Notes: generated by a model from the sequence alone, not told the origin. Numbered from the stretch's first letter, positions 37,969 through 63,999 are shown. The stretch is 64,000 nt of DNA from an uncultured delta proteobacterium (GCA_963706575.1 CAVPNL010000014.1:101838-165837); one strand, 5' to 3'. Translations and numbers: made by a program.

Positions 37969-37977
37969 TTTGAAAAA

Positions 37978-40233: not shown

Positions 40234-40301
40234 TAATAGTTTTTTCCTATCATTATACTGCATTTTTTTCCTTATTGATTTATGGGTTCAAATGCTAACA
40301 T
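40234..40301 (+). promoter_or_regulatory. Conserved operator-promoter, copy 1 (upstream of DUF2062-MFS-DUF1295)
   Basis: TAATAGTTTTTTCCTATCATTATAC; TTGATT begins 41 bp after the motif start; TGcTAACAT -10-like element. Confidence 0.7.
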
Positions 40302-40400
40302 TTTACTTTAAAGTAACAGGCAAAATTTGGATGTACCTAAATTGCCTCTGCGAGATCTTTTAATCTTAAAAAAATATCTTGCGTTATCCCAGAAATCAAG

Positions 40401-40901
40401 ATGCGGAACAAAACGATGCCAACATTCTGGACAAGAAAAATTACTGAGCCCTTAATGGGCTTTCTGACGCAGGGCTTGAGTAGCCAAAAATTGGCGCTCA
40501 GTCTTGCTTTTGGGATCACCCTCGGCACCTTTCCGCTGCTCGGTGTGACGACAATTTTATGCACGCTGGCAGCGCTCATCCTCAAGCTTAATCTGCCTGT
40601 GATTCAATTTGCAAATTACCTGGTATATCCGCTGCAGATCCTGCTGCTGGTACCATACTACCACCTTGGAAACCTGCTTTTTGACGTTCAGCAAAACATA
40701 GACTTTAACACCCTTAGGAACATGCTGACAGGAAGTACGCTCAAGGAGATGATAACTATGTTAGTAGAATCAACGCTTTATGCCGTCGGCGCCTGGCTTT
40801 TGATAAGTCCACTGGCTATGGTATTGCTTTATACGGGTCTTAAACCGGCCTTGATTAGGCTTAATTTTTCATCGTCCCGACTTAAATTTTACCGGCGCTA
40901 G
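40401..40901 (+). CDS. DUF2062 family membrane protein
   Basis: QGLSSQKLALSLAFGITLGTFPLLG…LNLPVIQFANY…P. Confidence 0.8.
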   Translation: MRNKTMPTFWTRKITEPLMGFLTQGLSSQKLALSLAFGITLGTFPLLGVTTILCTLAALILKLNLPVIQFANYLVYPLQILLLVPYYHLGNLLFDVQQNIDFNTLRNMLTGSTLKEMITMLVESTLYAVGAWLLISPLAMVLLYTGLKPALIRLNFSSSRLKFYRR

Positions 40902-40905
40902 GCCT

Positions 40906-42318
40906 ATGAGCATTATGCCAGACAACGCTACATCCCGGGTTCCACTGCTCAAGAAAATTGCCTACGCGGTGCCGGCCTTTTTTCTGGCGGTGGTCGGCAT
41001 CCCTATCTATGTCTACATTCCAAAATTTTACACGGATGTGGTCGGAGTTGACATTGCCATCCTGGGTTATATTCTCTTTAGCGTTCGCATTTTCGATGCC
41101 GTAACGGATCCGGCACTGGGTTATCTGTCCGATCGAACACGAACCCGGATGGGCCGGCGACGGCCTTACATCGCGGTGGGTTCCGTATTTGTGGCGCTGA
41201 CGATGTTTATGCTATTCAATCCGCCTCGCGTTTCCGCGTCCCTCGAAACGGCCTGGTTTGCAGGGTGTATCTATGCCCTGTTTTTATGCTGGACGGCAGT
41301 TGTGGTTCCCTACGAATCACTTGGGCCTGAGATTACCTTCGATTACGATGAGCGCACAACTCTTTTTGGAATGCGCGACGGGTTTCTCATCGCCGGAACG
41401 CTGGCAGCGGCAAGTTCCCCGGCAGTCGTGCAGTGGCTTTTCGACCTTGCGGGAGACACCGATGGTGAGCGGGCCAAATTCTTCTGGATAGCGGTGATCT
41501 ACGCGCCGCTGCTGATCGTATCCTGCGGGTGGTGTGTGCTGGCAATCAGAGAACTCCCGCGAGGGCCTGTGTTCCGCACAACCACCATCTGGCGCGGGCT
41601 TCACCAAATAGGACGCAATCGGCCCTTTTTAGTCCTTCTGATTGCCTACACTGTGAGCGCCATTGGAAACAACCTGCCGGCAACACTGATTCTTTATTAT
41701 GTCGAGTACGTGCTGCAATCCAAAATGGCCGATGCCTTCTTGCTGCTTTACTTCATTACCGGGATTATCTTTTTGCCGGGCTGGATCATCATGGCGCGCC
41801 GAACCGGGAAAAAGGCGGCCTGGCTGACCTCCATGGCCGTTAACACCGGTGCCTTTATGGCTGTCTTTTTTCTCGGTCCGGGAGACGCGGTTATCTATGG
41901 CGTCCTGGTATTTTTGTCCGGAATCGGTTTCGGTGCAACCCTGGCTATCCCGTCGTCGATCCAGGCCGATGTTATTGACTATGATGAACTTCTGACCGGT
42001 GAACGACGGGAAGGGCAATACATTGGTTTGTGGTCGATTGCAAAAAAGTTCGCTGCTGCGGTCGGGGTTGGAGCCAGCTTGTCGATTCTAGGTTTGGTGG
42101 GCTATACCCCCAACATTGAGCAATCTGAGCAGGTGCAGTTGACGCTGCGAACGCTTTATGCTTTGGTCCCCTCGATTTGCAACATCATCGCATTCTTCAT
42201 TGCGTTGGCGTATCCGATCAGCAGCAGCCTCCATAGGGACATACGAATGGCAATCGCCCAGCGGCAAAAAGGCCGCCCGGTTACCAACCCTTTAAACCCG
42301 GCTCAAACCCTGACTTAG
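40906..42318 (+). CDS. MFS transporter (GPH/MelB-like)
   Basis: RIFDAVTDPALGYLSDRTRTRMGRRRPY, DVIDYDELLTGERREG. Confidence 0.9.
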   Translation: MSIMPDNATSRVPLLKKIAYAVPAFFLAVVGIPIYVYIPKFYTDVVGVDIAILGYILFSVRIFDAVTDPALGYLSDRTRTRMGRRRPYIAVGSVFVALTMFMLFNPPRVSASLETAWFAGCIYALFLCWTAVVVPYESLGPEITFDYDERTTLFGMRDGFLIAGTLAAASSPAVVQWLFDLAGDTDGERAKFFWIAVIYAPLLIVSCGWCVLAIRELPRGPVFRTTTIWRGLHQIGRNRPFLVLLIAYTVSAIGNNLPATLILYYVEYVLQSKMADAFLLLYFITGIIFLPGWIIMARRTGKKAAWLTSMAVNTGAFMAVFFLGPGDAVIYGVLVFLSGIGFGATLAIPSSIQADVIDYDELLTGERREGQYIGLWSIAKKFAAAVGVGASLSILGLVGYTPNIEQSEQVQLTLRTLYALVPSICNIIAFFIALAYPISSSLHRDIRMAIAQRQKGRPVTNPLNPAQTLT

Positions 42319-42340
42319 ATGAATAAACGGAGGAAACACC

Positions 42341-43136
42341 ATGCAGACCGCAATCACAACTATGGGATGGAATCTTGCCGTTATCGTTGCAATGATGATC
42401 ATCGGATGGCTGATCAGCCTCCGGTACCGGAATGTGACCATCGTGGATAGTTTGTGGGGACTTGGCTTCGTGTTGATTGTCTGGATTACATTTTCTCTAT
42501 CAGAAGGTTTTCCGGGCCGCAAGACACTGATTGCGGTGCTGGTAACGGTATGGGGAATGAGACTGAGTATTTACCTTAGCAGAGCGAAACTGGGGAGCCG
42601 CTGAAGACCCCCGCTATGGCGAATGGCGCAAGAAGAGTGGTGAACGATTCCGGGTCGTAAGCCTTTACAAGGTATTTTTGTTGCAGGCGATCTTTTTGTG
42701 GGTCATTGCCCTGGTGCTGCAGTATGGCCAGCTTTCACCGACACCGGACCACTTCGTCTGGCTGGATGTGTTGGGCGTGTTCATCTGGGTAATCGGTTTT
42801 TTCTTCGAAGCGGTCGGCGACTGGCAGCTGGCCCAGTTTAAAGCGGATCCGGCCAATAAAAGCCGCGTCATGGATCGGGGACTGTGGGCCTATTCCCGCC
42901 ATCCCAATTATTTCGGCGAGTTTCTCATCTGGTGGGGATTGTTTCTGATAACCCTGTCCACTCCCAACAGCTGGTGGACGGTTATCAGTCCGTTGATCAT
43001 TACCGCCGTGCTGCTGAAAATGACCGGCATTCCGTTAACAGAAGGGACCATAGTGAAAACCCGCCCGGGATACGAGGACTACATCAAACGCACAAGTGCA
43101 TTTGTACCCTGGTTCACCAGGAAGAAGGTCCCGTGA
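42341..43136 (+). CDS. DUF1295 (steroid 5-alpha-reductase-like) membrane protein, frameshifted near 42582
   Basis: IVDSLWGLGF…WGMRL, then after a +1 shift RNWGAAEDPRY…GLWAYSRHPNYFGE. Either a pseudogene or a sequence error. Confidence 0.8.
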
Positions 43137-43414: not shown

Positions 43415-43507
43415 TCACGCTGTTAGATCTTACCATGTTCAATCATAAAATAAAAAGAACGACTCTTTGAATTCTCTAAACCATTTTATTTTTGCGAAAG
43501 GTCAGCC

Positions 43508-44428
43508 ATGATTCGTTGGGGTTTGTGTTGTATTTTCCGTGAAGAGCCCATAAGGTTTCGCCGTGCGACAGCAAAGTTTTACAATAAGCTATCTCCAGAA
43601 GATCGGATGCGCCGCCTCTCCGATGTTTGCATGCATAATGCCAGATCTCTGTTCAAAGCCCTTCAATTTTGCCGGCGTAACGGTGTTAACGCCTTCCGGA
43701 TCAACAGCCAGATTTTGCCGCTCAAAACGCATCCGCAACTCGGTTATGCGATAGAAGCGTTGCCCCAATCGGCTGTGATTGTAAATGCATTCAAAAAATG
43801 CGGAACCTACTGCCGCCAACACAATCTGCGCACGAGCTTCCATCCTGATCAGTTTATCTTGTTATCATCCCTGAATCCGGACGTCACCCGCCGCTCGATT
43901 GCCGATCTACAATATCAGACAGAGGTCGCCGAATGGGTCAACGCCGATGTCATCAATATTCATGCCGGTGGGGCTTACGGCAGCAAGAATAAAACCCTGC
44001 AGCGCCTGGTTAAGCAAATTCGGAATTTACCGCAAAACGTTCGCAGCCGTCTGACCCTGGAAAACGATGATCGACTGTATACACCTCGAGACCTGCTGCC
44101 GGTTTGTGAAAAATTGGGAATCCCGCTGGTATACGACCGGCATCACCATCGCTGCCTGCCCGACGGTCGGAATGTCGCAGACACGACCCAACGGGCTCTG
44201 AAAACCTGGAACCGTGAGCCGCTTTTTCATATTTCAAGTCCCCTGAGGCCTTGGGGGAATGGGAATCCGAGAAATCATCATGACTATATCAATCCTGAGG
44301 ACTTTCCTGAATACTGGCTGAACCTTGATATTACCGTTGAAGTCGAGGCAAAAGCCAAGGAGCTCGCCGTGCTCAAACTGATGAGAGATATTAAGATCAT
44401 GCACAAAAAATTGAGAAAATCTGTTTGA
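43508..44428 (+). CDS. uvsE: UV DNA damage endonuclease
   Basis: GLCC, FRINSQILPL.THP, SFHPDQF, INIHAGGAYG, RLTLENDD, YDRHHH, HISS, HHDYI, VEAKAKE. Confidence 0.92.
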   Translation: MIRWGLCCIFREEPIRFRRATAKFYNKLSPEDRMRRLSDVCMHNARSLFKALQFCRRNGVNAFRINSQILPLKTHPQLGYAIEALPQSAVIVNAFKKCGTYCRQHNLRTSFHPDQFILLSSLNPDVTRRSIADLQYQTEVAEWVNADVINIHAGGAYGSKNKTLQRLVKQIRNLPQNVRSRLTLENDDRLYTPRDLLPVCEKLGIPLVYDRHHHRCLPDGRNVADTTQRALKTWNREPLFHISSPLRPWGNGNPRNHHDYINPEDFPEYWLNLDITVEVEAKAKELAVLKLMRDIKIMHKKLRKSV

Positions 44429-44703: not shown

Positions 44704-45378
44704 ATGGACATTTCCATCCGAATTGGCGGTGAGGCCGGCCAGGGGATTCAGTCTATCAGATCGATTATTGCCAAAACGTTTGTGCGACACGATTTTTATG
44801 TGTTCATCAATCAGGATTTTGCGTCGCGCATCCGCGGCGGGCACAATTTTGATCAGGTTCGAATTTCGAATGATCCGGTGCATGCTCTCGCTGATAAAGT
44901 TCATATTCTGATTGCTCTGGACAAAGAAACGACCCGCCAGGATATCGACTGCCTGGCCGAAAACGGTGTCATGATATTCGATGGCGAAGAAATTGATTAT
45001 ACATCCGAAAATTCCAATCACTTCTCCGTTCCCTTTGCTCAAATTGCCTCAGAGGCCGGTAAAAGCAAAATCATGATCAATTCGGTGGCAATCGGCGCGA
45101 CCATTGCTTTGATGGGGTTTGAGCTGCAGCCGATGCTGGACTGCCTGCAGGAGCAATTTCAGCAAAAGGGCTCCGAGACGGTAGAAAATAATCAAAAAAG
45201 CGCGACTGCCGGATATGACTTTGTTCGGCGGAATTTGAAAACAGAACCGCCTTTCAAGGTGCCGCCTGCAAAATGGGTTCGTCAAAAGATGCTGCTCACC
45301 GGCAGTCACGCCATGGCCTTGGGTGCGATGGCTTCAGGCTTGAAATTTTATTCCGGTTATCCCATATCGCTCCCATAA
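44704..45378 (+). pseudogene. 2-oxoacid:ferredoxin oxidoreductase alpha subunit, 3'-truncated
   Basis: IGGEAGQGIQS, SRIRGGHN, FYSGYPIS, then stop at 224 aa where the convergent cfa 3' end lies; the alpha domain is mostly missing. Confidence 0.8.
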
Positions 45379-46703
45379 CCGGCTGACATTGCTTTGGCAA
45401 AAGCACGCCAATACCTCGTTATCAGGTCTGCCCCCCCGGCAGAGAGCCCCGCCGGCACAACGGTTTTACAAACAGCATCTGCACATCGCCGATATATCTT
45501 TCAGCAAAACCGCCCTCGCAATAGCAGAGGTAATATTCCCACATCCGGATGAAAGGTGTCTGAAAATCCTAAAGCCCGGACCTTTTCGATGTTGGCAAAA
45601 AAACGTCGGCGCCATTCACGCAGGGTTCTGGCGTAATGCGGAGTGATATCCTCCAAGTGAACGAGCCGCAGGTCCGTCGCCCTGGCAATGGCGTTGCTGA
45701 TGGCGGTGATCGAGGGAATGCAGCTGCCCGGAAAAATATAACGTTTGATAAAATCAACCGATCGTTTGTGGCGATCGAATATCTGATCGCCGATGGTTAT
45801 TGCTTGCAGCGCCATCATGCCGTTATCTTTCAGCAACCGGCTGCATGTTTGGAAAAAGGTTGGCAAATATTGGTGGCCGACGGCCTCGATCATTTCAATG
45901 GAGACCAGTTTGTCGAATTTTCCGCTAAGATCGCGGTAGTCCTTTTTTAACAGGGTGATGCGATCTTCCAGCCCCGCTGCGTTGATGCGGTTTTGGGCAA
46001 ATTGGTGCTGTTCGTCGGAGATGGTGGTGGTGGTCACGTGCACCCCGTAGTTTCGGGCCGCATGCACGGCAAAGCCTCCCCAGCCGGTGCCGATTTCCAC
46101 GATCCGGTCGCCGGGTGTAAGCTGCAGCTTGCGGCAAATTCGATCGTATTTGGCCTCAGATGCTTCCCTGAGGGTGCTGTTTGCCTGTTCGAATATTCCA
46201 CAAGAATAGGTCATGGTGTCATCGAGAAACAGCGCATAAAAATCATTTCCCAGATCATAGTGGGCCAGAATATTCTTTTGGCTGCCCGCCTTCGTATTCT
46301 TTCTGACATAATGATAGAATTTGTAAAACGGAGCCGTCAGGCGCGCCAACCCTTTTTCCAGGTCTTCAAATGCTTTTTGGTTCAGGGCCAAAATGCGCAT
46401 GACCATCGTCAAATCGTCTGCCGACCACAATCCCTCCATGTAGGCCTCGGCAGCGCCAATACTGCCGCCAAAAAAAATACGCGTGTATAATTGCGGATGA
46501 TGAACGCTAATTACGGCCTGCAAAGAAAACCGATCCGAATCCTTACCGAAGTGATGACGATGACTATTTTCGATAAGTGTGATCCAGCCATGCGCCAATC
46601 TTTTTAGCAGCGATAATACTGCTCGGCGCGCGATGCGATCCAAACGCCGCTCTTTAAGCTCATTTAAATCAGGGGCCTCAGCGGGAATAATGAGTTCGGT
46701 CAT
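45334..46703 (-). CDS. cfa: Cyclopropane-fatty-acyl-phospholipid synthase family methyltransferase (frameshift near 45553)
   Basis: HYDLGNDFY, MTYSC, EIGTGWG, SIEMIEAVG, FIKRYIFPG. After an extra T, FIRMWEYYLCYCEGGF.ER.IG continues in another frame; 3' end uncertain. Confidence 0.88.
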
Positions 46704-47483
46704 TTAGGATCCCCTTCGATTATGGGATCTCTTTTTTTCGGATGGGAAAAAAAAGGTGTCCTTTTTAGAATCAGCCGCAATGCCTGCCAGTAAATCATGG
46801 CAATCACTTTGCCGGTCATCATCGGATATCGCAGGAGCACCCGTGTCAGGGACGATCGCGTGATTTCCCGGCGGTAAAGCGCAAGGCTGGCGTCAAAAAG
46901 CTTTTCTTCTCCCTGGTAATCTATCATGTGCACCCGCAGGGAATCCCCCGGCTCGCGAAAGCGCCAATCGTAGTGAATATCCATATCGATAAACGGTGAT
47001 ACATGAAATGACTTTGCCATCTGATGGCGCCGCCAGTGTTTAACGGGATGCTCATTTTGTTCGGCGCCTAAAACATAACAGTGGCGCTCTCTCCAGGGGG
47101 TGTTATGAATTTCCACGACGATGGTCTCCACTCTGGTATCTGCCGGATCATAGCAGTAATAAAAACTGGCCGGATTGAAACAATGACCAAAATATTTCAA
47201 ATGGGCCAGCAGGCGAATCGGACCGTTCGGTCGACTGCCTAGCTGATCCTCAACAAGATCTGCGTACCGTCTGATCCAGCGGAATCGCCGGATTTCCAAA
47301 GTGATCCCGGCGGCGAAAACAGGCAATATTGAACCGTTCGTAAGACCACAGTGGATGAATATCAAACAGGGTCGGCAATTCGGCCAAATCGAGAAACATG
47401 AAAAATAGGCGATATTGAAACATGTTCGCTCGCGGCCTGAATCGCCGGTGCCGAATGCTCCCTTCATATATGCAACTATGCAT
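46700..47483 (-). CDS. DUF1365 family protein (frameshift near 47261)
   Basis: IYEGSIRHRRFRP…F.Y, joined to FNPASFYYCY…EIHNTPW.ERH.Y…KSFHVSPF…IYWQALRL..K. Confidence 0.85.
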
Positions 47484-47594
47484 GGTTCATTTCGCGATAA
47501 GTGGTCAAACAGTCAATTCGTTGAATACATATCATAAAAATAACCATAAAATTCCAGAGGTCAGCAATACGACTTTGATTATCGGCGTTCTTTT

Positions 47595-48839
47595 CTAAAG
47601 GCTTTTGCCAAAGTGCTTACATACCTCCAGCGCGCTGACAACGCCATCTTCATGGAAGCCATAACCCCAGTAAGCACCGGCGTAGTAAGTGCGATTAACC
47701 CCGTTTATTTCCTGGTGACTGTGTCTTGCCGAAAGACTCTCGGGATTATACACAGGATGATGATACATCAACTCCCGGTAAATGGTGGCCGGATCAATGG
47801 CTTTAGCCAAATTTAGCGAAACGCAAAGTTCCTTCGGTGCGCCGATACTTTGCAAGATGTTCATATCGTAAGTGACGGCGACACGGCCGAGATCCTCTTT
47901 TGGAATGTGATAATTCCAGCTGGCCCATGCTGCTTTTTTGCTGGGAAGCAAAGATTCATCGCAATGCAACACGGCCTGATTTTCCTGATAGGGGATAACG
48001 CCCAGAATATTCTTTTCGGTATCCGTTGGATCATCCAGCAGGGCTAACGCCTGGTCACTGTGAGCGGCAATGACCACCTGGTCGAATTTTTCGGCCACTT
48101 CATTTTGCGGTTGAATTTCAACCGCGTCCGGATACCGTCGAACCGATGCGACCGGACAGTTTAACCGGATCTGATCGGCATAGGGCTGGGTTATCGGTTT
48201 GATATATTGCCGCGACCGGCCTTTTATTGTGAGCCACTGGGGCTGGTCTTTGACGTTCAGAAACCCGTGATTTTTAAAAAATTGGGCAAAATAACGCGCC
48301 GGAAATTCATTGAATTTGACCGGATCCGCCGACCAAACGGCTTCACCCATGGGAATAATGAAATGCTGCACAAAGGCCTGGGAGTAAGCCTTGCCGGTTA
48401 GAAATGCAGCCAGTGTCAGTTGATAATCATCTGATTCCAATAGCGCTTCGGCATCCCGTTTGAAGCGCATGACATCCCACAGCATGCGATAAAAGGACGG
48501 CCGCAGCAGGTTGCGGCGTTGAATGAAAAGGGAATTAAGGGTGCTGGGACTGAATTCCAGACCGGTTTTCTCGCATTGCACGCTGAAGCTCATGACCGAG
48601 TCTTGCCAGCCCACGCCTAGGCGTTTCATCAGCTTCACGAAATTCGGATAGGTCCTTTCATTGAAAACGATGAATCCCGTATCCACCGCATACTGTTGCC
48701 CGTTGAGGGACACGTCCACGGTATGGGTGTGCCCGCCGACATAGTTATTGGCTTCGTAGACGACGACCTCGTGATCTTCACTGAGTAAATAGGCCGAGGT
48801 CATGCCTGAAATCCCGGTGCCGATGATGGCGATTCGCAT
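47595..48839 (-). CDS. FAD-dependent oxidoreductase (amine-oxidase-like; cfa/DUF1365-associated)
   Basis: IAIIGTGISG, GGHTHT, VDTGFIVFNERTYPNF, AWASWNY, GAYWGYGFHEDG. Confidence 0.92.
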   Translation of the reverse strand: MRIAIIGTGISGMTSAYLLSEDHEVVVYEANNYVGGHTHTVDVSLNGQQYAVDTGFIVFNERTYPNFVKLMKRLGVGWQDSVMSFSVQCEKTGLEFSPSTLNSLFIQRRNLLRPSFYRMLWDVMRFKRDAEALLESDDYQLTLAAFLTGKAYSQAFVQHFIIPMGEAVWSADPVKFNEFPARYFAQFFKNHGFLNVKDQPQWLTIKGRSRQYIKPITQPYADQIRLNCPVASVRRYPDAVEIQPQNEVAEKFDQVVIAAHSDQALALLDDPTDTEKNILGVIPYQENQAVLHCDESLLPSKKAAWASWNYHIPKEDLGRVAVTYDMNILQSIGAPKELCVSLNLAKAIDPATIYRELMYHHPVYNPESLSARHSHQEINGVNRTYYAGAYWGYGFHEDGVVSALEVCKHFGKSL

Positions 48840-48877
48840 TTCTTGCCCTCCAGCGGGTCCCTCAAATATCCGCCGAA

Positions 48878-49852
48878 CTACATTTGGGTTGATGCTTCCG
48901 CGATGATACGGTTCTTATGGAGCACGTGCTCGGGAACGGGACGCAGATCCCTGACGATACCCAGCCAGGACATAAAAACCAGCAAGTAATAGGTAATGTC
49001 AATTTCCCACCGGAAAAAACCCTGGCGGGCGGAAACGGCATAGTGATGATGATTGTTGTGCCACCCTTCTCCCAAAGTGATCAGAGCGAGCAGCGCATTG
49101 TTGCGACTGGTATCGGACGTGTTGTAACGCCGGCTACCGTAGATGTGGTCAAAGGAGTTGATCGTCACCGTCGCGTGCAACAACACGACGGTGGAGACGA
49201 AAAATCCCCAGATGACCAGTTGCATTCCATTGGTCCCCAGTTGGGGCGCGAAGCGTTCGAGGATTTCACCGCAAACAAACAAAGCCAGGGCCAGCAGGAT
49301 GGGGATGACCGTGTCAAAACGGTTCAGCCAGCGTAGTTCCGGAAATTGGGCCCATTCGGCAACGAATTTGTACTTGGTAGGAAAATTGGACCTGGAGGTT
49401 AACCAGCCGATATGGCTCCACCAGAACCCGTGACGGCTGGGTGAGTGCACATCCTGCTCTTGATCTGTAAAGCGATGATGATGGCGATGATGGGAGGCCC
49501 ACCACAGAGGGCCGCGCTGGACCGACGCATTGCCCACTACCCCGAAGACAAACTGCCAGAAACGATTGGTCTTGAAAGCTTTATGGGAGAAGTAGCGATG
49601 GTAAAAACCGGTGATGGCAAACATACGGACGATGTAGAGCAGCAGGGCCACCATCACCGCTGTCCAGCTCCAGCCGACCCAGAAGACACCCAGGCACATC
49701 AGATGTAAAAAAATAAGCGGAACAATGCGCCACCAGTCCACTTTTTTAAAGTCTCCGGTTGGCATGGATTCGATATGTGCTTCTGCATCAAACCAGCGGA
49801 TGACGGCCAGCGCCGGCGCAGAAGACAAAATAGATTTTATGAATCTGGCCAT
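48878..49852 (-). CDS. Membrane acyl-CoA/acyl-lipid desaturase (delta-9 type)
   Basis: His boxes YHRYFSH, HRHHH, GEGWHNNHH. Confidence 0.92.
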   Translation of the reverse strand: MARFIKSILSSAPALAVIRWFDAEAHIESMPTGDFKKVDWWRIVPLIFLHLMCLGVFWVGWSWTAVMVALLLYIVRMFAITGFYHRYFSHKAFKTNRFWQFVFGVVGNASVQRGPLWWASHHRHHHRFTDQEQDVHSPSRHGFWWSHIGWLTSRSNFPTKYKFVAEWAQFPELRWLNRFDTVIPILLALALFVCGEILERFAPQLGTNGMQLVIWGFFVSTVVLLHATVTINSFDHIYGSRRYNTSDTSRNNALLALITLGEGWHNNHHHYAVSARQGFFRWEIDITYYLLVFMSWLGIVRDLRPVPEHVLHKNRIIAEASTQM

Positions 49853-50033
49853 TTTTGGGGCAGCTCCTGGAAATATGTTCGATGAACTTAACCATGAATT
49901 TGAGACAAAATCAATAGTGCAATCCTCCTTGGCGAACATGCCCTTGACCATCGACCAAAAGCGGTTGCAACTTTTCTAGGGATGATATATTTGTTACGCG
50001 ATTGGATTTTGCAGAATCAGGAAGCAAATCCCA

Positions 50034-50936
50034 ATGAAGAACAAAAACGATACCAACACCCGCAGTGTGGAACCACTGAGTTTCTCAGATGCGCTGGCCC
50101 GAACCGTGCTCAATTCGTTATCGGCACATATCGCGATCTTAGATAAAAACGGCGTTATTCTCGAGACCAACAATGCATGGCAAACGTATGCCGTTAACAG
50201 CGGCATGCCGGAGACCTACGACCATAGAGGGATCAATTATCTTGAAATCTGTGATGCGACCACCGGCAGCGAGGCCGCGGGCGCAGCCAAAGTCGCCCAG
50301 GGTATCCGGGCGGTGATACGCGGCGACTTGGAAGAGTTTTTATTTGACTATCCCTGCCATTCAGAGGACGGCCCGCACTGGTACTACATGCGAACCATTC
50401 GCATGGCGGGTCCGGGCCCCATCCGAGTGGTGGTCAGCCACGAGGAAATTACGGCCTTGAAGCTGACTGAAGAAGCCTTGAAAAAGAGTCAGGAAGAACT
50501 TTTCGAACAAAAGCAAAGTCTGGAAGAAGTCAATATCGCCCTGAAAGTCCTGCTAAAACAGCGCGAGGCGGACAAGCTGGAACTGGAAAAAAAAGTCTTA
50601 ACCAATGTCAAAGATCTCGTGCTGCCGTATGTCGAAAAATTAAAAAAATCACGGCTGAAACCCAAGGACAAGACGCTGGTAGAGATCATTGATACGCACC
50701 TGAATGATGTGATATCCCCCCTGCTGCAACACTTTGCCAATGCCAAAATTTTGTTGACGCCCCAGGAGATGCAGGTGGCCGGTCTGGTCAAAGACGGCAA
50801 AACGAGCAAGGAAATCGCCGATATCCTGAATGTTTCTGAAACCACGGTCAATTTTCACCGCAAAAACCTGCGCGTTAAATTCGGCTTGACCAATCAAACG
50901 ACCAATCTGCGGTCTTACCTACTTTCTATTTCCTGA
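50034..50936 (+). CDS. PAS-domain LuxR-family transcriptional regulator
   Basis: PAS domain (LNSLSAHIAILDKNG…NYLEIC…YPCHS…WY), coiled coil, LTPQEMQVA…GKTSKEIA…TVNFHRKNLR HTH. Confidence 0.88.
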   Translation: MKNKNDTNTRSVEPLSFSDALARTVLNSLSAHIAILDKNGVILETNNAWQTYAVNSGMPETYDHRGINYLEICDATTGSEAAGAAKVAQGIRAVIRGDLEEFLFDYPCHSEDGPHWYYMRTIRMAGPGPIRVVVSHEEITALKLTEEALKKSQEELFEQKQSLEEVNIALKVLLKQREADKLELEKKVLTNVKDLVLPYVEKLKKSRLKPKDKTLVEIIDTHLNDVISPLLQHFANAKILLTPQEMQVAGLVKDGKTSKEIADILNVSETTVNFHRKNLRVKFGLTNQTTNLRSYLLSIS

Positions 50937-50972: not shown

Positions 50973-51041
50973 TAATAGGTATTTCCTATCATTAGACTCC
51001 GAATTCTCTCCCATTGCGTTTTTTGCTTTTGTGCATAAGTT
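50973..51041 (+). promoter_or_regulatory. Conserved operator-promoter, copy 2 (upstream of methyltransferase-lipocalin)
   Basis: TAATAGGTATTTCCTATCATTAGAC; TTGCGT begins 41 bp after the motif start; then TGTGCATAAGTT. Confidence 0.75.
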
Positions 51042-52379: not shown

Positions 52380-52415
52380 CGAATGATAGATATCGTTCGT
52401 AATGGTGACCATGAA

Positions 52416-53354
52416 ATGAATCCGACAATAATTGCATCAATTTTGGGGATGGTAATAATCCTCTCTGGTTGCACAGGAGTTCCCGATGGATTGGAACCTG
52501 TAACCGGTTTCGAGGCTGACCGATATCTGGGAAAATGGTATGAAATCGCCAGACTCGACCATTCCTTTGAACGCGAATTGAGCAATGTCAGCGCCACCTA
52601 CACGCGAGGGGAGAACGGGAATATCCGGGTTAGGAACAGGGGTTTCAATGCCAAAACCGCGACCTGGAAGCAGATCGAGGGGCGGGCCCGCTTCATTGAA
52701 GACGATACCGTTGGCAGCCTGAAGGTTTCATTTTTCGGGCCTTTTTACGGCGGGTATCATATCATCGCGTTAGACCGGCAAAACTACAGTTATGCAATGG
52801 TGGCCGGACCGAGCAATTCGTATCTCTGGATACTGTCCAGGCGTAAGACGCTGGATGAATCGATTTATGCAAAATTGGTTTCCCAGGCCGATGCTTGGGG
52901 TTTTGATACCAGACAGCTGATCAGGGTTGAGCATAATCTGCCCGACGAAAGGGTGCAGCTTGCAGAAAATACCATCAAGACCGATTCAAAGGAAAATATC
53001 AAAATGATAACCTCCTGCCCATCAACACCCAATTGTGTGTCTTCCATCGACAGAGATCGCAAGCATTTTATCGAGCCGCTGCGCTTCGCGGGCAGCGTCA
53101 AAGATGCAAAGTACAGGCTGCTGAATATTCTCTCTGAACTTAAACGGGCTCGGATCGTGACAATTGAAAATGATTTTATTGAGGCCGAGTTTACTTCTTT
53201 TGTTTTCCGCTTCGTCGATGATGTCGAATTTTACTTTGATGATCGCCATAAGATCATTCATGTAAAATCGGCTTCACGATTAGGATATTCCGATCTGGGG
53301 GTCAACCGTCGTCGAGTAGAAAAAATTCGCAAACGCTTTAACCAAAAGGAATAA
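52416..53354 (+). CDS. blc: Lipocalin Blc (lipoprotein) fused to DUF1499
   Basis: Lipobox ILSGC; YLGKWYEIARLDHSFE; LKVSFFGPFY; YLWILSR; then CPSTPNCVSS…FVDDVEF…SASRLGYSDLGVNRRR. Confidence 0.85.
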   Translation: MNPTIIASILGMVIILSGCTGVPDGLEPVTGFEADRYLGKWYEIARLDHSFERELSNVSATYTRGENGNIRVRNRGFNAKTATWKQIEGRARFIEDDTVGSLKVSFFGPFYGGYHIIALDRQNYSYAMVAGPSNSYLWILSRRKTLDESIYAKLVSQADAWGFDTRQLIRVEHNLPDERVQLAENTIKTDSKENIKMITSCPSTPNCVSSIDRDRKHFIEPLRFAGSVKDAKYRLLNILSELKRARIVTIENDFIEAEFTSFVFRFVDDVEFYFDDRHKIIHVKSASRLGYSDLGVNRRRVEKIRKRFNQKE

Positions 53355-53356
53355 AA

Positions 53357-53536: not shown

Positions 53537-53544
53537 CGGGCACA

Positions 53545-53770: not shown

Positions 53771-53892
53771 CCGAATGGCAGTTTTTTACCCTTATTTTGC
53801 CCTTAAAGATTGTTTATTGCAAATTAGCAGATGTGTATAACTATTAATATGATGATGTTAAAAAAAATCTACTAAAAAATCAGGAGCTAATT

Positions 53893-54129
53893 ATGAAAGT
53901 AAATTTAAAATGTTTTGCGACTCTGGTAAACCCAGACAGGTGCGATTTTAAAGAAAGTACCCCATACGATCTGGGAGACGGCCAAACTGTTAAAGATCTG
54001 GTTCAACGCGCGGGGATTGCCGGAGAAGACGTGAAGATCGCTTTTGTGAACAGCCGGATAGTAGATTTCGGTACAGTCCTATCCGACGGGGACCGGGTTG
54101 GGCTGGCCCCGGCTGTCGGGGGGATGTAA
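53893..54129 (+). CDS. MoaD/ThiS family sulfur-carrier-like protein
   Basis: MKVNLKCFATL…AFVN…LSDGDRVGLAPAVGGM. Confidence 0.85.
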   Translation: MKVNLKCFATLVNPDRCDFKESTPYDLGDGQTVKDLVQRAGIAGEDVKIAFVNSRIVDFGTVLSDGDRVGLAPAVGGM

Positions 54130-54187
54130 ACCCTATCCGTAAACGCAATAACCATACTAAAACCTAATATAAGAAAGGAGATGTCAC

Positions 54188-54499
54188 ATGGACGTTCAAG
54201 ATTATTGCAAAAGCATGGAAACCGAAATGACCGCCTGGAAGGCCAAGCTTTATGATGTTACGCGAAAGGTCGACAAACTGGGAACAGCTGAAAAAGAGAG
54301 GGTCCTGCCCAATATCGAAGACCTTCACATGTTACTTGAAGAAATGTCGGACCGGGTGGAGAAATTGAAAAACGAATGCCCCTCTGATTGGAGCCCAATC
54401 AAAAACGAGATTGAAGAGGGTAGTATCGATATGCGTGGAAAGTTCGAAGAAACGATGGAATATATCGGCAAAGCCGCACCGGTTTCGATTCCGGGATAA
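54188..54499 (+). CDS. Hypothetical helical protein
   Basis: AAGGAG RBS; 103 aa; DYC…WKAKLYD…ECP.DWS. Confidence 0.75.
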   Translation: MDVQDYCKSMETEMTAWKAKLYDVTRKVDKLGTAEKERVLPNIEDLHMLLEEMSDRVEKLKNECPSDWSPIKNEIEEGSIDMRGKFEETMEYIGKAAPVSIPG

Positions 54500-57097: not shown

Positions 57098-58639
57098 TCA
57101 CCGCGTGCGTGCCGGCGGCAAGGCGCAAGTGGTATGCAGTTTGGGTGTAAATCGTTCAGGACCATATATGATGGGCCTGTTGATGGATTTGGCAATGGCT
57201 TTGAGCATGCCGAAAAAAATCCACTGATGGAAGGGATAAAGCCCGTACCAGTACAGCATGCCGAATATGCCTTTGGGTAAAAACCGCGAGAGCATCTGCA
57301 ATTCCACCTGAGCGCTGCCAATGGGGGTGATTTGAAATTCGAGCAATGCATCTCCCGGTGTTTTCATTTCCGCCACCAGCAGCAAACGCCGGGGTGCCTC
57401 GACTTCCAAAACCCGCCAGAAATCCAAAGCGTCACCGACGCCAATCTCAGAAGGATGACGGCGTCCCCGCCGCAGCCCGACACCGCCCACCAGCCGGTCT
57501 ATGATGCCCCGCAAGCGCCACAGAAAGTTGCCGAAGTACCAGCCGGTTTTACCGCCGATGCGACAGACGGATTGCCAGACATCTGCGGCGGTTGCCTGCA
57601 GTTTTACGCGATAACCGCAGCTCATGATGGTTCCGCCGGCCCAATCGGCGTCGCCGCAGTGGGCCCATTCAGGTTCCAGCAAATTGCCGGCATCCATCCA
57701 GCAGGTATCCACCTGCTCTTGCTGGATGCGATCCAGCGCCAACCGGATCGCTTCACGGCAGGTCAGCAATTTCTGCGGAATAATCGACTGAATCCGATTT
57801 TCGGTGCAGACCGCATCGCTGGTCAATCCTTCCGTCAACGGCAGCGCTATTGATTTGGGAACCGGGCTGATCAGATGGATCCACAGGGCACTTAGGGTGG
57901 GAGTGAGAACCGGTACCGGTATGATCAACCGCTTGGCAAGATGCGCCTCCTCGGCATAGATATCCAACAAATCACGATAGGTCAGAATGTCCGGACCGCC
58001 GATATCGTAGGTTTGACCAACGGTTTGGTCATGTTCAAGGCAGCCGATCAGATAGGTGATGACATTGCGGATGGCGATCGGCTGATTTAATGACCGCACC
58101 CAACGGGGCGTGGTCATGATCGGCAGACGTTCAACCAGGTAACGCAGAATTTCAAAAGAGGCACTGCCCGATCCCAGGATCATGGGCGTCCGTAGATCCG
58201 TTGTGGGGACCGCACCGGACTGCAAAATCTCGGCCACCTCGATGCGCGATTGCAGGTGTTTGCTCAAGGATGCCTGCTTGGCCTCCGCCAATCCGCCCAG
58301 GTATATCATTCTTTCCAGCCCTGTGGCGGCGGCGGCTTCCACCATGTGGCGCGCGGCCCGCCGGTCGGCCTCAACGAACTTTTTTTTCTGGGCAATCATG
58401 GAGTGGACCAGGTAATAGGCGGCCCAGCATCCAGCGGCTGCTTTTTTAAGGGATTCAAGGTCAAGAACATCCCCCTGGACCAACTCCACCTGATCATGAT
58501 GGGCCCAGGGGCGGCAGGCCACTTTTGCCAGGGTACGGCCCATGGCCCGCACCCGATACCCTGCATCGAGCAAGGCCGGAATGAGCCGGCCGCCGACATA
58601 GCCGGTGGCACCGGTGACGAGTATTGGTTTTGAATGCAT
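57098..58639 (-). CDS. Atypical SDR/NAD-binding protein with DUF2867 (YbjT-like)
   Basis: LVTGATGYVGGRL, YYLVHS, LSKHLQSR.EV, GSGSASFE, IGG..GWY, GDALDFWRV, FLPKG..G..YW. Confidence 0.9.
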   Translation of the reverse strand: MHSKPILVTGATGYVGGRLIPALLDAGYRVRAMGRTLAKVACRPWAHHDQVELVQGDVLDLESLKKAAAGCWAAYYLVHSMIAQKKKFVEADRRAARHMVEAAAATGLERMIYLGGLAEAKQASLSKHLQSRIEVAEILQSGAVPTTDLRTPMILGSGSASFEILRYLVERLPIMTTPRWVRSLNQPIAIRNVITYLIGCLEHDQTVGQTYDIGGPDILTYRDLLDIYAEEAHLAKRLIIPVPVLTPTLSALWIHLISPVPKSIALPLTEGLTSDAVCTENRIQSIIPQKLLTCREAIRLALDRIQQEQVDTCWMDAGNLLEPEWAHCGDADWAGGTIMSCGYRVKLQATAADVWQSVCRIGGKTGWYFGNFLWRLRGIIDRLVGGVGLRRGRRHPSEIGVGDALDFWRVLEVEAPRRLLLVAEMKTPGDALLEFQITPIGSAQVELQMLSRFLPKGIFGMLYWYGLYPFHQWIFFGMLKAIAKSINRPIIYGPERFTPKLHTTCALPPARTR

Positions 58640-58765
58640 AACAATCCTTTTGAAATTGGATTTTAGAATTTGTTTCGTATTTCGGCCAATTTTATAAGAT
58701 CAGGCGTGCTTTGAATTTTATCTCTGATTGCACCTGGATCAGCTTTCAAAGACTTTAATCTTTTC

Positions 58766-59716
58766 CTATACGTGAGTTCTCAATTTGAGCTCCACCGGAT
58801 GCGGGTTCAGGTAAGTCTGCATCTTGAGATACGGTTGATCATATTTGCGCACATAATGATTAATCAAGGTAAGCGGAACGATCAGGGGTGCAAACCCCTG
58901 TCGGTACAGCGCGGACACCTCCAGCAGCTCCTGTTTCTCATCTCCGGTTAACTGCTTCTTAAAATAGCCCAGCAGGTGCTGCAACACATTGATATTCTTT
59001 TTTACGGTGGTTTTGAGTTCCAGGGCTTGCATTAGAAGATGCTCATATTGGCTGTAAAGCTCTTTAATGGGCATTTTCTTGCCGCCGGCAACGGTCTTTC
59101 CCATCAGCCGGTAGTGTTTCTGGCTGTGGGACAAAATTAAAAGTTTATTGCATGTATGGAAATTCACAAGGTTTCCCATACTACGCTTTTTTTTGATGCT
59201 ATCCCGCCAGCGTTTCAAGGTAAAAATGCGCTCGATAAAATTTTCTCGAATCTCCGGATTGTGGAGTCGACCGTCATCCTCGACCGGTATGCGCTGAAAA
59301 TGGTCCATATACGCCCGGGCAAACATGCCTACCCCTTTCTTTTCCGGCATTCCCTTTTCGCTGTATACTTTCACCCGTATCATGCCGCTGGAAGGAGAAT
59401 CGCACTTGAAAATAAAGCCACACAGATCTTCTTTTTCGAGTTCTTTTACGCGCTCTTTGGCCCAGCGGGTCATTTGATCGGTGTGATCCGTTTTACTCTT
59501 GAAAGTAATCAGACGGGGGTTTTCAGGATCACCGACCAGACGCATTGATTCCCTGGGAATCCCAAAACCAGCTTCGACTTCGGGGCACACGGGAACGTAT
59601 TCAACAAACTGGCCCAAGGTATCTGTCAAGTATCGATCGCGCTGATGACCGGCATTCCAACGCACATTATTTCCGAGCAGACAGCTGCTGATCCCAAGTC
59701 TTATTTTTTCTTGCAT
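58766..59716 (-). CDS. YbgA family protein (DUF523 + DUF1722)
   Basis: GISSCLLG..VRWNAGH, VCPEVE.G, SPSSG, EDDGRL, FH..NKL..LSHS, YL..QTYLNP.P.EL.LR. Confidence 0.9.
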   Translation of the reverse strand: MQEKIRLGISSCLLGNNVRWNAGHQRDRYLTDTLGQFVEYVPVCPEVEAGFGIPRESMRLVGDPENPRLITFKSKTDHTDQMTRWAKERVKELEKEDLCGFIFKCDSPSSGMIRVKVYSEKGMPEKKGVGMFARAYMDHFQRIPVEDDGRLHNPEIRENFIERIFTLKRWRDSIKKKRSMGNLVNFHTCNKLLILSHSQKHYRLMGKTVAGGKKMPIKELYSQYEHLLMQALELKTTVKKNINVLQHLLGYFKKQLTGDEKQELLEVSALYRQGFAPLIVPLTLINHYVRKYDQPYLKMQTYLNPHPVELKLRTHV

Positions 59717-59870
59717 GCCAAATCTCCTCTCGAGCTGGATGTTCGTTGAACAACAGATAGAAATCGCCGCGTCATTCAGTCGCATCTTTGGTGAAATGTC
59801 ATTTTTTTATAGTCGTATTTATGCTAATTATCAAAACTGACACAAACCACAGAAGGGGTAACAGATAAAT

Positions 59871-60296
59871 ATGTTGGACCAAATGAAAGCCCTGGCCAGA
59901 GAAAAAAACACGTGCGTGCTGGCGACGGATGCCGGCGGAAAACCGTATTGTTCCCTGATGGCTTACGTGACCGACGCATCCTGTCAAGAAATTTACATGG
60001 TGACGCACAGAAACACGCAAAAATACAAAAATCTGATGAAAAATCCTGCGGTCAGTCTGCTGATCGACTCTCGTGAAAAAACACCTCGCAACCGTGTTCA
60101 GGCACTTACGGTGGAAGGATCTTTCCATAAAATCGAGGACGACGCTAAACGAACCCAGATCAGAAGAATGTTGATCAAAACGCATCCGCATCTATCCGAT
60201 TTTATCGATCATGCCGAAGCGGAAATTTTTTGCATTAAAGTCGGTTCGTTCCTGTTACTCAACGGTCTCAGCGAGGCGCATTTTCAGGCGATGTAA
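59871..60296 (+). CDS. Pyridoxamine 5'-phosphate oxidase-like (split-barrel flavin-binding) protein
   Basis: CVLAT…PYCSLMAY…TQKYKNLMKNPAVSLLIDSR. Confidence 0.85.
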   Translation: MLDQMKALAREKNTCVLATDAGGKPYCSLMAYVTDASCQEIYMVTHRNTQKYKNLMKNPAVSLLIDSREKTPRNRVQALTVEGSFHKIEDDAKRTQIRRMLIKTHPHLSDFIDHAEAEIFCIKVGSFLLLNGLSEAHFQAM

Positions 60297-60405
60297 ACCT
60301 GTATTTTAGATAAAAAATTTCTTCAGTCCGTGCGCATTTCGAATCGGATCACCATCCTCCGGCGGCGGACCATCGGGCAAAAGATGGTTATTTTAAAGAC
60401 AGTTT

Positions 60406-62604
60406 TTAGATTTCCCCCGTTCCAATGGTAACGATCCCCAAATAGCCATCCACGGTGATTTTATCTCCGGTTTCAATCAGGGCAGTGGCCTCCGGAATAC
60501 CGGTGACGCACGGCAGCCCGTATTCCCGAGCGATGATGGCCCCATGGATCAGCATGCCGCCCCTGCGCTCCACCACGGCTGAAGCCAGGGGCACCACAAA
60601 CGTCATGTTGGGGTCCACCGCATCGCAGACCAGCACTTCTCCATGTTTGAAATCCGCCAGATCGGCATGTTGCCGAATCAGCCGCGCTCTGCCGTTCGCT
60701 ATACCGGGACCCCCCGGCTGGCCGATCAACTGCCTGGGCTTAATATCAAATGTGGCCCCGGCCTTCATGCGGTAGGGGTTGAGGGTCTCTGCCGAATGAT
60801 CCAGATCGGCTAAGACCGCTTCTAATTCGTTGGCTGTCGAAGCGTCAGGCCCCTTGGATTGCGCGTTTTCAATTCGCTGTCGGGCTTCTCGAATCGCTGC
60901 CAGTAATTGGGCCTCGATTCTGCCCAGGTAAATATTGTCATCATCTCTTAATTGATAGCTGGTGCGGCCCAAATCGAGATACTCGACGGCCTGGGTTCGT
61001 TGATCGCCCGCAAAGCAAGCTAAAAATTTTTCTTTAAGGATTTCCACGTTCGCGGATTTTTGCCGGCCACCTGGGGCGGGAGGATGATTTGCCATTTCAA
61101 GTAAAATTTTGATCAACGGTTCCGAATCCTGAACACACTGGCTCCCACCGGTCACGGCGCAGGAAAGGTCACCAAATTGGCGGATAAAGGTTTCAACTCG
61201 GGTTTGAAAATCAGGGTCGGCCTCGGCATAAAGGCCATTTTGTAATTGCGCTGCCAGCCGGTGATTGTTGCGAATCTGATCAGCCAGATCCTCCAGCATT
61301 CGGTTGCGCTCCAGACTGGCCATTTCCGTTTGGGTCAGCAGGTCGACAAACTCGTAAGGGTCTTCGGGCTGGATGGCATCATTGTATACCTGACCAAATA
61401 ATCGCACACCATGGGCAAACGGGATAAAATCATCCCAATAAACATTGACCCAATGGTGATTGATTTCCCAGCGACGTTTGATTTCTTCTGCCAGGGATCG
61501 ATCGGATAACAGGGATAAGTCGATGGCCGCCAGTTCTTCTGCGGCAGCGATCATACCCGGAATCAGCTCCTGCTCGATTTTTTTTCGCAGCGATTTCAGA
61601 TTCTCAAAACTGCGGTGCAGACTCAAATACCAGCCGCGGTTGTCTTCGGTTTTACCGGTGGAAAGGGTTGTGATGGGTCGTGACTGCAGGACAACCAAAG
61701 ACTGGTCCTTGTATGTCCATTCGACGTCCTGGGGTGCGCCGAAGAAATCTTCCGCCCGGCGCGCCTGACTGAATACTTCCCGGGTTTCTTGTGCGTTCAG
61801 CGGAGGCATCTGGGACATGCTTTCGGGCAACGGGTTCAACTGAACCCCTTGTTCAATCGGAACCATCCAATAGCGGCGGGTCGCCGGTGTGTGGGAAATT
61901 ATCCGATGGGTTTTTCTATCCAGTATCCAGCGATCCGGCTCAACCGTGCCGTCGACCAGCCCCTGATTTAAACCGTAAACGGATTCGATAACACCCTGGG
62001 AGGCATCATTCGGGTTTTGGGTAAATACCACACCGGACCGATCGCCGGGCACAATCGCCTGGATCACCACGGCCATCGTACTTTTTTCAACACTCAAACC
62101 GATTTCCTGGCGATACAGTAAGGCCGCGTCCGACCACAGGGAGGCCCACACTTTGAGGATATGTTCCAGGATCGCATCGATTCCGCTGATGTTAATATAG
62201 GACTCGTGTAACCCGGCAAAAGAAGCTTTGGCGGTGTCTTCCTCCGGGGCGGATGACCGCACAGCCACCGGTTTATCTTTGAAGCGGGACTGAATAACAG
62301 CGTTCAAGCGTTTTGCGATGTTATCCGGGATCTGCTTCCGCAGAAACATGTTGCGGATTCGGGTCGCGCAATCCCAGATCTCCTCCCATCGCATCTCCTT
62401 AAAATCTTTGCGATGCAGTTCAAGCTGGATCCGCTCCCGCAGTCCCGTGCGATCGACGTATTCCTGATAGGCATCGCTGGATATGCATACGGTCTCCGGA
62501 ATCTGAAAGCCGTTCTTGGCCAATAACGCCAGGGCATATCCTTTTCCGCCGACTCGCGGCCGATCTTCATGCTGAATATCTTCTGCGGATATAACCCACT
62601 TCAT
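60406..62604 (-). CDS. PEP-utilising enzyme (PPDK/PEP-synthase ATP-grasp, central domain, C-terminal His-swivel; rifampin-phosphotransferase-like layout)
   Basis: VGGKG, VAVRSSAPEED..ASFAG, PQDVEW, LQSRPIT, GGMLIHGAIIAREYGLP; ATGA overlap with the upstream gene. Confidence 0.88.
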   Translation of the reverse strand: MKWVISAEDIQHEDRPRVGGKGYALALLAKNGFQIPETVCISSDAYQEYVDRTGLRERIQLELHRKDFKEMRWEEIWDCATRIRNMFLRKQIPDNIAKRLNAVIQSRFKDKPVAVRSSAPEEDTAKASFAGLHESYINISGIDAILEHILKVWASLWSDAALLYRQEIGLSVEKSTMAVVIQAIVPGDRSGVVFTQNPNDASQGVIESVYGLNQGLVDGTVEPDRWILDRKTHRIISHTPATRRYWMVPIEQGVQLNPLPESMSQMPPLNAQETREVFSQARRAEDFFGAPQDVEWTYKDQSLVVLQSRPITTLSTGKTEDNRGWYLSLHRSFENLKSLRKKIEQELIPGMIAAAEELAAIDLSLLSDRSLAEEIKRRWEINHHWVNVYWDDFIPFAHGVRLFGQVYNDAIQPEDPYEFVDLLTQTEMASLERNRMLEDLADQIRNNHRLAAQLQNGLYAEADPDFQTRVETFIRQFGDLSCAVTGGSQCVQDSEPLIKILLEMANHPPAPGGRQKSANVEILKEKFLACFAGDQRTQAVEYLDLGRTSYQLRDDDNIYLGRIEAQLLAAIREARQRIENAQSKGPDASTANELEAVLADLDHSAETLNPYRMKAGATFDIKPRQLIGQPGGPGIANGRARLIRQHADLADFKHGEVLVCDAVDPNMTFVVPLASAVVERRGGMLIHGAIIAREYGLPCVTGIPEATALIETGDKITVDGYLGIVTIGTGEI

Positions 62605-63053
62605 TGGTTTAGGTGCAATTCCATGACGTTTTGAAAGTTTTGAACCATAAAGTAGGATTTTGCCGACACCCTGACCAATGCGCAAGACGGTGAACGAACA
62701 AAATCTTCAAGGTGCGGATGTTTTTTCAGATACCGTTCCAGGATCGGCTGCCGTTCCGAGCCGACGACTTCGGTTGCATTGCCGACTACCGTGACGGAAA
62801 CGGCCCGATGGAAATCAACGGTCTGATTGGTACTGCTGTTGACGAGAAGCGCTACCCTGGAGTCGGCTTTTAGATTTTCAAATTTGCGGGTCGTTTTGGG
62901 TGTTACGAAGAAAAGATGCCTCAAATCCTCGGTGGCATAAAATGCAACCAGGCTGGCATACGGCTGTCCTGAACGATGGGTCGCCAGGACTCCGAGATTC
63001 TGAGATTCAAACAGTTTCCTGAGTCGTTGGTGTATGGCTTGCGTTTTATCCAT
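62601..63053 (-). CDS. Pyridoxamine 5'-phosphate oxidase-like protein
   Basis: LGVLAT…PYASLVAF…TRKFENLKADSRVALL. Confidence 0.88.
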   Translation of the reverse strand: MDKTQAIHQRLRKLFESQNLGVLATHRSGQPYASLVAFYATEDLRHLFFVTPKTTRKFENLKADSRVALLVNSSTNQTVDFHRAVSVTVVGNATEVVGSERQPILERYLKKHPHLEDFVRSPSCALVRVSAKSYFMVQNFQNVMELHLNQ

Positions 63054-63258
63054 AAAAACCGCTTATACTGACTCAACGATGATTATTGGCAGCGCTGCAT
63101 TTTTAAAACAGACCACAGTCGACCTGTGGAAAAAAGCCAGGTCACTGAAAGAAGCCGTGAGGTATTGCTCGCGAATCAAAGAGAGCACCCGGGGCGGACT
63201 GTCAAAGGCATTGGACGTCCGCCCAGACCTATCAGAGACGGTTTAAAATGCACTGCGG

Positions 63259-63635
63259 TTACGATCCATCCCCGATGAGCGGCAATTCCTGATCCACCTT
63301 AAAAAATACCAGGAAATTTGGCTTCCTCTTTTTTTATCAGGGTACTGCCTGCGGCGCAAGGACTTAAGCAGATCGGTGTCCTTTTCCTCCCGAATCTTCG
63401 TCAGGAAAAGTCGCTTGCCTTTGTAACCAGGTCCGTCTTCATGGAACAAATAAGCTGCATGGGAGTTGGTTTGAAGGTTAGTATGGGTTAGACGATCGCG
63501 CATAATCATAGCGATGGTACCATCTTCCATGAAGTGCGGTCTGGCATATACGGCGGCATCCACTTTGCCATCATCATCGGCGGTGGCCAATATTCCGACA
63601 CCTTTGTATTTTCAAAGTATTCCTTGAAGGTCCAT
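63259..63635 (-). CDS. Pyridoxamine 5'-phosphate oxidase-like protein with several single-base indels
   Basis: GGAGG RBS and ATG at 63635. Reconstructed as MDLKEYFENTKGVGILATAD…YARPH…RLTHTNLQ…GYKGKRLFL…FLVFFKVDQELPLIG. Confidence 0.7.
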
Positions 63636-63930
63636 GGGATCCTCCTATTGTCCATAGTGTTTTATTGAAATGGGCAAGGCAGGAACCGATCGATCTCTTC
63701 CTTGCTGTTTATGAAGCTCCAGATTCGACCTGTATTGCACGCTTCTACTTTTATCCCTGAACGTCAATTCCCAGATCACAGCCCAGATGGGGATCTTTAT
63801 CTTCACATTCGAAATTTTGCTCACGGGTATCAACATGTCCTTCTTCTCTTTCTTGATCTGATTCAACGTAATCTTGTATTGTGTTCATAATTGGCCTCCT
63901 ATAGTTTTTTTTAAGTGTTTCATGATTAAT

Positions 63931-63999
63931 ACTATATGCACACCCAAAAAATGTGCAACCAGAGAGAATTAGGCGTTTTATGATAGGAAAAACCTATTA
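63931..63999 (-). promoter_or_regulatory. Conserved operator-promoter, copy 3 (reads leftward toward the PNPOx/PEP-utiliser genes)
   Basis: Minus strand: TAATAGGTTTTTCCTATCATAAAAC…AATTCTCTC…TTGCAC (41 bp after the motif start)…TGTGCATATAGT. Confidence 0.75.

Follow-up and report, generated by a model that had tools for sequence, protein, structure and literature searches.

What controls the stress genes in the last 24 kb of a contig from an uncultured delta proteobacterium? The window analysed here is a stretch of 64,000 nucleotides (nt) (GCA_963706575.1, CAVPNL010000014.1:101838-165837), and between its positions 40,234 and 63,999 one operator-promoter cassette recurs around the gene for a regulator that joins a PAS sensor to a LuxR-type helix-turn-helix (HTH). 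The original prediction, made from the DNA alone, was that this PAS-LuxR protein activates the genes behind the cassettes. Having followed it up in related genomes, we conclude, with a probability of roughly 0.8, that the palindrome of the cassette is a putative site from which PAS-LuxR, as a one-component activator, switches on genes at weak sigma70-type promoters. Activation of stress genes by PAS-LuxR is likely because the palindrome, which in many sulfate-reducing bacteria keeps a fixed distance from promoter-like sequences, tracks the regulator gene across genomes. The activated genes are predicted to protect against oxygen and light damage, to which the protein probably responds.

Each cassette comprises a 15-bp ATAGG-N5-CCTAT palindrome, 24 nt, a TTG, usually 16 nt and then TAnnnT. 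The window contains the following copies, scored with the weight matrix described below:

40234..40301, plus strand: cassette 1; palindrome 40236-40250, -35-like TTGATT 40275-40280, -10-like TAACAT at a 15-nt spacer; 37.8 bits; heads DUF2062-MFS-DUF1295
50973..51041, plus strand: cassette 2; perfect palindrome 50975-50989, TTGCGT 51014-51019, TAAGTT 51036-51041; 42.0 bits; 39 nt past the regulator stop
53776..53845, plus strand: cassette 4 (degenerate); palindrome 53778-53792, TTGCAA 53817-53822; 24.4 bits
63931..63999, minus strand: cassette 3; perfect palindrome 63997-63983, TTGCAC 63958-63953, TATAGT 63936-63931; 38.1 bits

The 20-mer that opens copies 1 to 3 lies at 40234(+), 50973(+) and 63999(-), exactly where it had been reported; the palindrome has its single mismatch in copy 1, the TTG of each copy begins 41 nt from the motif start, and the degenerate copy keeps that offset. 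Copies 2 and 3 also have two words in common, at offsets 29 and 57 in both. The fixed spacing claimed for the copies holds inside each cassette but not between them (10.7 and 13.0 kb). The T that distinguishes copy 1 is a normal variant (column frequencies over 86 sites: G 0.53, T 0.39), an equivalent of the cassette 4 site is retained in relatives, and the window ends with its contig, one base past copy 3.

In the source genome (G000, 5.67 Mb) the exact 20-mer pattern matches four times, compared with 4.5e-5 matches expected from an order-3 Markov model; three matches are in the window and the fourth is on contig C13. Genome scanning at two or three mismatches from the consensus returned no site. 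We also carried out the proposed genome-wide scan with a weight matrix, which was built from 86 sites at orthologue loci of other genomes only, so that the source genome contributed nothing to training. The top ranks went to the four window copies and the C13 pair (24.4-42.0 bits); the next-best site scored 16.8 bits, and the maximum in a reversed-genome control was 16.2. The first 8 kb of C13 (bases 1315-8036) are a second copy of window 57-64 kb, 92-98% identical to it and carrying the fourth exact match and one more degenerate site. This may be a true duplication or a second strain in the bin, whose contamination is 6.4%. The neighbours in C13:1-8400 differ from those in the window, and the second C13 site precedes a chalcone-isomerase-like gene.

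Is the geometry of the cassette conserved? The comparison drew on 65 orthologue loci from other genomes and on 13 paralogue loci that share only the C-terminal half of the regulator, a truncated orthologue (L135) being excluded from the paralogue count. Among all 4-mer inverted repeats in the intergenic DNA of the 65 orthologue loci, TAGG-N5-CCTA was the third most enriched without any seeding. Of 68 oriented palindromes that had one mismatch or none, 27 were followed by a TTG at exactly +24, and no other offset accounted for more than five. The consensus of the 86-site matrix reads T-R-R-Y-A-G-K-T-W-T-T-N-C-C-Y-M-Y-C-A, then TTG, and TAnnnT follows the TTG at a 16-nt spacer in 60/84 strong sites. 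Strong conservation is limited to the palindrome, TTG and TAnnnT columns, while the spacers vary in sequence at constant length. The same geometry appeared in 104 held-out loci picked by protein query alone, from which training sites were removed and in which sites were picked by the palindrome only: TTG was at +24 in 38/56 orientations, about half of the remainder being the reverse reading of a real site, and 28 of these 38 had TAnnnT at the 16-nt spacer. If TAnnnT is the -10 element, the palindrome would be centred near -66.

Does the site follow the regulator? Sites were found in 55/65 orthologue loci and 0/13 paralogue loci. We then surveyed 250 genomes of the order, counting the regulator as present where a near full-length orthologue was found (E<=1e-80). 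Retention of the motif in relatives lacking the regulator had been named as evidence against the proposal; the strict pattern occurs in 48/66 regulator genomes and in 29/184 others, the latter near the level of a reversed-pattern control (18/66 and 23/184, respectively). Two or more sites are present in 26/66 regulator genomes versus 4/184 without the regulator. By hand count the 48 regulator genomes with a match span 27 families, and in families f1, f10, f12, f23, f35, f40, f62 and f79 matches are confined to regulator-bearing members. Most of the checked matches in regulator-less genomes score low (1.5-15 bits in eight loci), and of eight regulator genomes in which no site adjoins the regulator gene, seven carry a site at another place.

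A gene that the site itself brings to light allowed a test independent of linkage. The original prediction had copy 3 heading a PNPOx/PEP-utiliser unit; the first gene after cassette 3 is, however, an unlisted open reading frame (ORF):

63751..63888, minus strand: unannotated 45-aa ORF encoding an acidic protein with one conserved His and two Cys

This conserved protein is encoded in 72/251 genomes, with up to eight, often tandem, copies. It matched no Pfam or NCBIfam family, and is possibly a small metal- or redox-binding peptide. Its loci were found by protein search, and a site of at least 13 bits lies upstream in 32/38 loci of regulator genomes, at a distance of 108-160 nt, versus 5/28 loci in genomes without the regulator; the locus of the source genome and three loci without upstream DNA were dropped, and one counted locus had been in training. 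Among the five exceptions, G164 keeps two orthologue fragments, and in the draft genomes G091, G110, G117 and G215 no orthologue was found. In families f6, f10 and f49 (L141, L158, L159, L162) the site is directly followed by a gene for a different protein, likewise small (about 64 aa) and containing two cysteines.

Outside the order, a sample of 301 genomes yielded five orthologues. Three have an in-register site just after the gene (32.1, 20.1 and 12.9 bits), and the other two have none within 1.5 kb. The cultured Desulfosarcina alkanivorans PL12 and D. variabilis Montpellier carry the orthologue, with no site scored within 10 kb of the gene.

What kind of protein might bind the palindrome? 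The regulator, whose closest relatives come from Desulfobacterales, is encoded next to cassette 2:

50034..50936, plus strand: regulator of 300 aa; PAS domain at about residues 20-140, a long helix and a LuxR/GerE HTH at residues 241-289

The HTH matches PF00196 at 58 bits (cut-off 23.5). Its recognition helix, T-V/I-N/H-F-H-R-K-N, is nearly invariant in orthologues (exactly TVNF or close variants in 27/38 aligned) and differs in paralogues, including the closest one in the source genome. The genome also encodes four more distant NarL-like proteins. In the PAS domain residues C73, C108, H109 and H136 are invariant. Conserved Cys/His residues mark the large family of this domain (11,779 sequence clusters at E<=1e-10), which also occurs in histidine kinases and diguanylate cyclases; the subfamily has no known ligand and no solved relative. 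Fold matches to photoactive yellow protein (PYP), heme-PAS and flavin adenine dinucleotide (FAD)-PAS tied for best, with VqmA and EL222 among the top. The flavin-binding cysteine motif of LOV domains is GRNCRFLQ; it is absent from the PAS domain of the regulator, where the alignment reads G-x-N-Y-L-x-x-C. Six of the 65 orthologue neighbourhoods also encode a LOV-like PAS protein of 137 aa that stands alone and lacks the LOV cysteine (e.g. L061:2849-3262 and L069:1380-1793).

Taken together, co-occurrence over 250 genomes, sites at unlinked targets, a recognition helix that differs from those of paralogues and a site placed upstream of a weak -35 support the assignment of PAS-LuxR as the probable activator. 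In the mechanism that we propose, a dimer of the LuxR-type HTH would bind the inverted repeat centred near -66 and bring sigma70-type polymerase to a promoter that is too weak to work by itself; there may be a second half-site that overlaps the -35, but support for it is weak. Most speculatively, a PAS pocket of C73, C108 and H136, perhaps with H109, might hold a redox-active metal or cofactor, and exposure of the anaerobe to O2 or to photo-oxidative stress might switch the protein on.

Which genes would such an activator control? Those downstream of the cassettes in the window are:

40401..43136, plus strand: DUF2062, MFS_2 transporter and DUF1295 (frameshifted in the assembly), after cassette 1
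43508..44428, plus strand: UV endonuclease UvdE, 370 nt past DUF1295, a putative member of the cassette 1 transcript
51162..53354, plus strand: S-adenosylmethionine (SAM) methyltransferase and a lipocalin-DUF1499 fusion, after cassette 2
53893..54499, plus strand: MoaD/ThiS-like gene and sll1863-like stress protein gene (sll1863_fam 35.6 bits, cut-off 35)
57098..63635, minus strand: PNPOx-like genes, PEP-utiliser, DUF523-DUF1722 and an NAD-binding DUF2867 gene, all downstream of cassette 3

The SAM methyltransferase is present in 51/65 orthologue loci and, next to the regulator, is the commonest first gene after a site (47/84 strong sites, ORFs below 100 aa being ignored). In relatives, sites head chalcone-isomerase-like-MFS-DUF1295-cfa units, one of which continues into cydAB; units of the 45-aa gene, PNPOx, DUF523, DUF2867 and class II photolyase; and short dehydrogenase-katG units, as well as lipocalin, universal stress protein (USP) and sll1863-like genes. 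The genes behind sites in relatives thus include those for photolyase, KatG, cytochrome bd, UvdE, lipocalin and USP. Within the window, single-base frameshifts near 42590, 45558, 47261 and 63626 interrupt DUF1295, cfa, DUF1365 and a PNPOx gene. Contigs of related organisms lack one base at three of the four positions, and the frameshifts may be assembly errors or decay of a duplicate. The window also holds fragments of a short-chain dehydrogenase gene (39799-40146) and of a 2-oxoacid oxidoreductase alpha gene (44704-45378; 222/572 residues).

Does the regulon extend to the whole island? Divergent from the regulator lies an operon with the families of furan fatty acid synthesis:

45440..49951, minus strand: desaturase, FAD oxidoreductase (UfaD-like), DUF1365 (UfaO-like, frameshifted) and CMAS methyltransferase (cfa/UfaM-like)

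PMC7380195 shows an O2-requiring synthesis of furan fatty acids by UfaM, the FAD enzyme UfaD and the DUF1365 protein UfaO. The window holds this family triad plus the desaturase, the ufa-like roles resting on family resemblance to the proteins of that study. DUF1365 is present in 44/66 regulator genomes versus 28/184 without. Two observations make the picture less simple here: the palindrome lies upstream of the desaturase-ufaD-ufaO-cfa operon in just 2/25 loci, and in the source genome the matrix scan found no site upstream of it. Because this operon mostly lacks the site, the regulon is smaller than the whole island. The region upstream of the operon (49855-49900, minus strand) shares with several relatives a TTGATT...ATTTCATG-like element, a different promoter type.

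The gene set recurs on contig C4 (583-618 kb), which provides an internal control: nothing there scores higher than 6.5 bits. This second copy includes a MerR/B12 CarH-like gene (C4:585107-586048), preceded by three tandem 11-bp TnnACA repeats (586105), one of two such triples in the genome; a double repeat at 597765 stands before a sigma70-family gene. These repeats match the CarH operator consensus given in PMC9304148, and the arrangement suggests a CarH-to-alternative-sigma cascade. The CarH-like protein is not filed as CarH because it scores 113 bits against an NCBIfam cut-off of 400. The original prediction saw no LitR/CarH control; this is right for the window, but a CarH/LitR-like regulator does sit beside the second gene set. 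As the C4 set combines a CarH-like gene and TnnACA repeats with no palindrome, a single genome has the same genes alongside different regulators and operators. One regulator does not preclude the other: 15/20 other genomes bearing the CarH-like gene also have PAS-LuxR. The C4 set also has a DPRP photolyase-like gene.

What does the regulator sense? We tentatively favour redox or O2, at a little under even odds, over light as a direct input, given that the targets include KatG and cytochrome bd and that PAS-LuxR often shares a genome with a B12 photoreceptor-like protein. With the same site and activator, the PAS domain could instead sense light directly through a chromophore attached to C73 or C108 in the manner of LOV or PYP, which would make the set a light regulon. 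Orthologue neighbourhoods do contain class II photolyase (11/65), a DPRP photolyase-like gene (5/65) and UvdE (3/65); the same gene set adjoins the CarH-like gene on C4, and the 45-aa gene of family f30, which is 6-8 kb away from a CarH-like gene, lacks a good site. We nonetheless consider a photoreceptor unlikely. PYP is among the best fold matches, but it ties there with heme-PAS and FAD-PAS; the LOV cysteine motif is missing; KatG and cytochrome bd are O2-defence genes; and the frequent retention of PAS-LuxR in genomes with a CarH-like gene is easier to explain if its input differs than if it is redundant. An input other than redox/O2 or direct light is somewhat less likely still.

Could the palindrome belong to another protein, such as a LuxR paralogue, the response regulators at 37162-39486 or an alternative sigma factor, with PAS-LuxR merely travelling with the island? 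Six draft genomes have sites without a detected orthologue, and G140, which has a site but lacks a full orthologue, encodes a LuxR protein (C50, L173) that combines a different N-terminal sensor with a near-identical recognition helix. However, one exceptional genome, G164, keeps orthologue fragments, unlinked sites track PAS-LuxR, and paralogues, whose loci carry no sites, are common in site-less genomes. A sigma54 activator ends 750 nt before cassette 1, but it is not recurrent among the common neighbour families and the -24 GG of sigma54 promoters is missing in 84/84 sites. We therefore regard another binder as improbable. Least probable of all is that PAS-LuxR binds the site and represses, or that the copies are relics of a duplicated promoter or small mobile element: the extra words of copies 2 and 3 and the partial duplication on C13 would suit relics, but the 86 sites diverge in their spacers at fixed length and are strongly conserved only in the palindrome, TTG and TAnnnT columns, and repression fits poorly with a site upstream of the -35, not over it, and with a cassette 2 promoter that fails a sigma70 consensus scan.

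Little is known of how sulfate reducers in sediment sense oxygen and light at the oxic boundary. Activation by PAS-LuxR would put a name to the regulator, define the geometry of operator and promoter exactly, provide a list of targets and point to cultured hosts that carry orthologues. Because the regulator has a known site, the PAS ligand becomes testable by a simple reporter; if the proposal is true, the regulon would be the first direct read-out for this PAS subfamily.

How does the system compare with those already described? We found no description of the operator or regulator in the open-access literature. The RpoE-ChrR singlet-oxygen regulon of Rhodobacter sphaeroides, as described in PMC7074977 and PMC7380195, shares with the gene set here, at Pfam-family level, photolyase, cfa-type methyltransferase, FAD desaturase and DUF1365, as well as a sugar/cation symporter and a short-chain dehydrogenase. 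RpoE-ChrR pairs an extracytoplasmic function (ECF) sigma factor with an anti-sigma factor, whereas here an apparent one-component activator has a palindromic site, the host lineage is one of anaerobic sulfate reducers and the ufa-like operon mostly lacks the site. Neither an ECF sigma factor nor a ChrR anti-sigma factor was detected in the 30 window ORFs scanned or the common neighbour families; one Cupin_7 match lies elsewhere in the genome. With the CarH/LitR B12 photoreceptor regulons (PMC9304148), the C4 set shares the CarH-like gene and the tandem TnnACA repeats; the window cassettes are instead inverted repeats upstream of the -35, no TnnACA tandem repeats occur in window 39-64 kb, and the adjacent regulator has no MerR HTH or B12-binding domain. 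The system resembles RpoE-ChrR and CarH in its apparent protective role and departs from both in the features that define them. In joining a PAS sensor and an HTH in one chain, the regulator is like VqmA, EL222 and the heme-PAS factor FG214 (bioRxiv 10.64898/2026.03.15.711900). It may represent, though we suggest this with reserve, a third, undescribed regulatory solution for photolyase/furan-lipid stress genes in anaerobic sulfate reducers, built on a widespread PAS subfamily whose Cys2-His pocket would bind a new kind of redox cofactor or chromophore.
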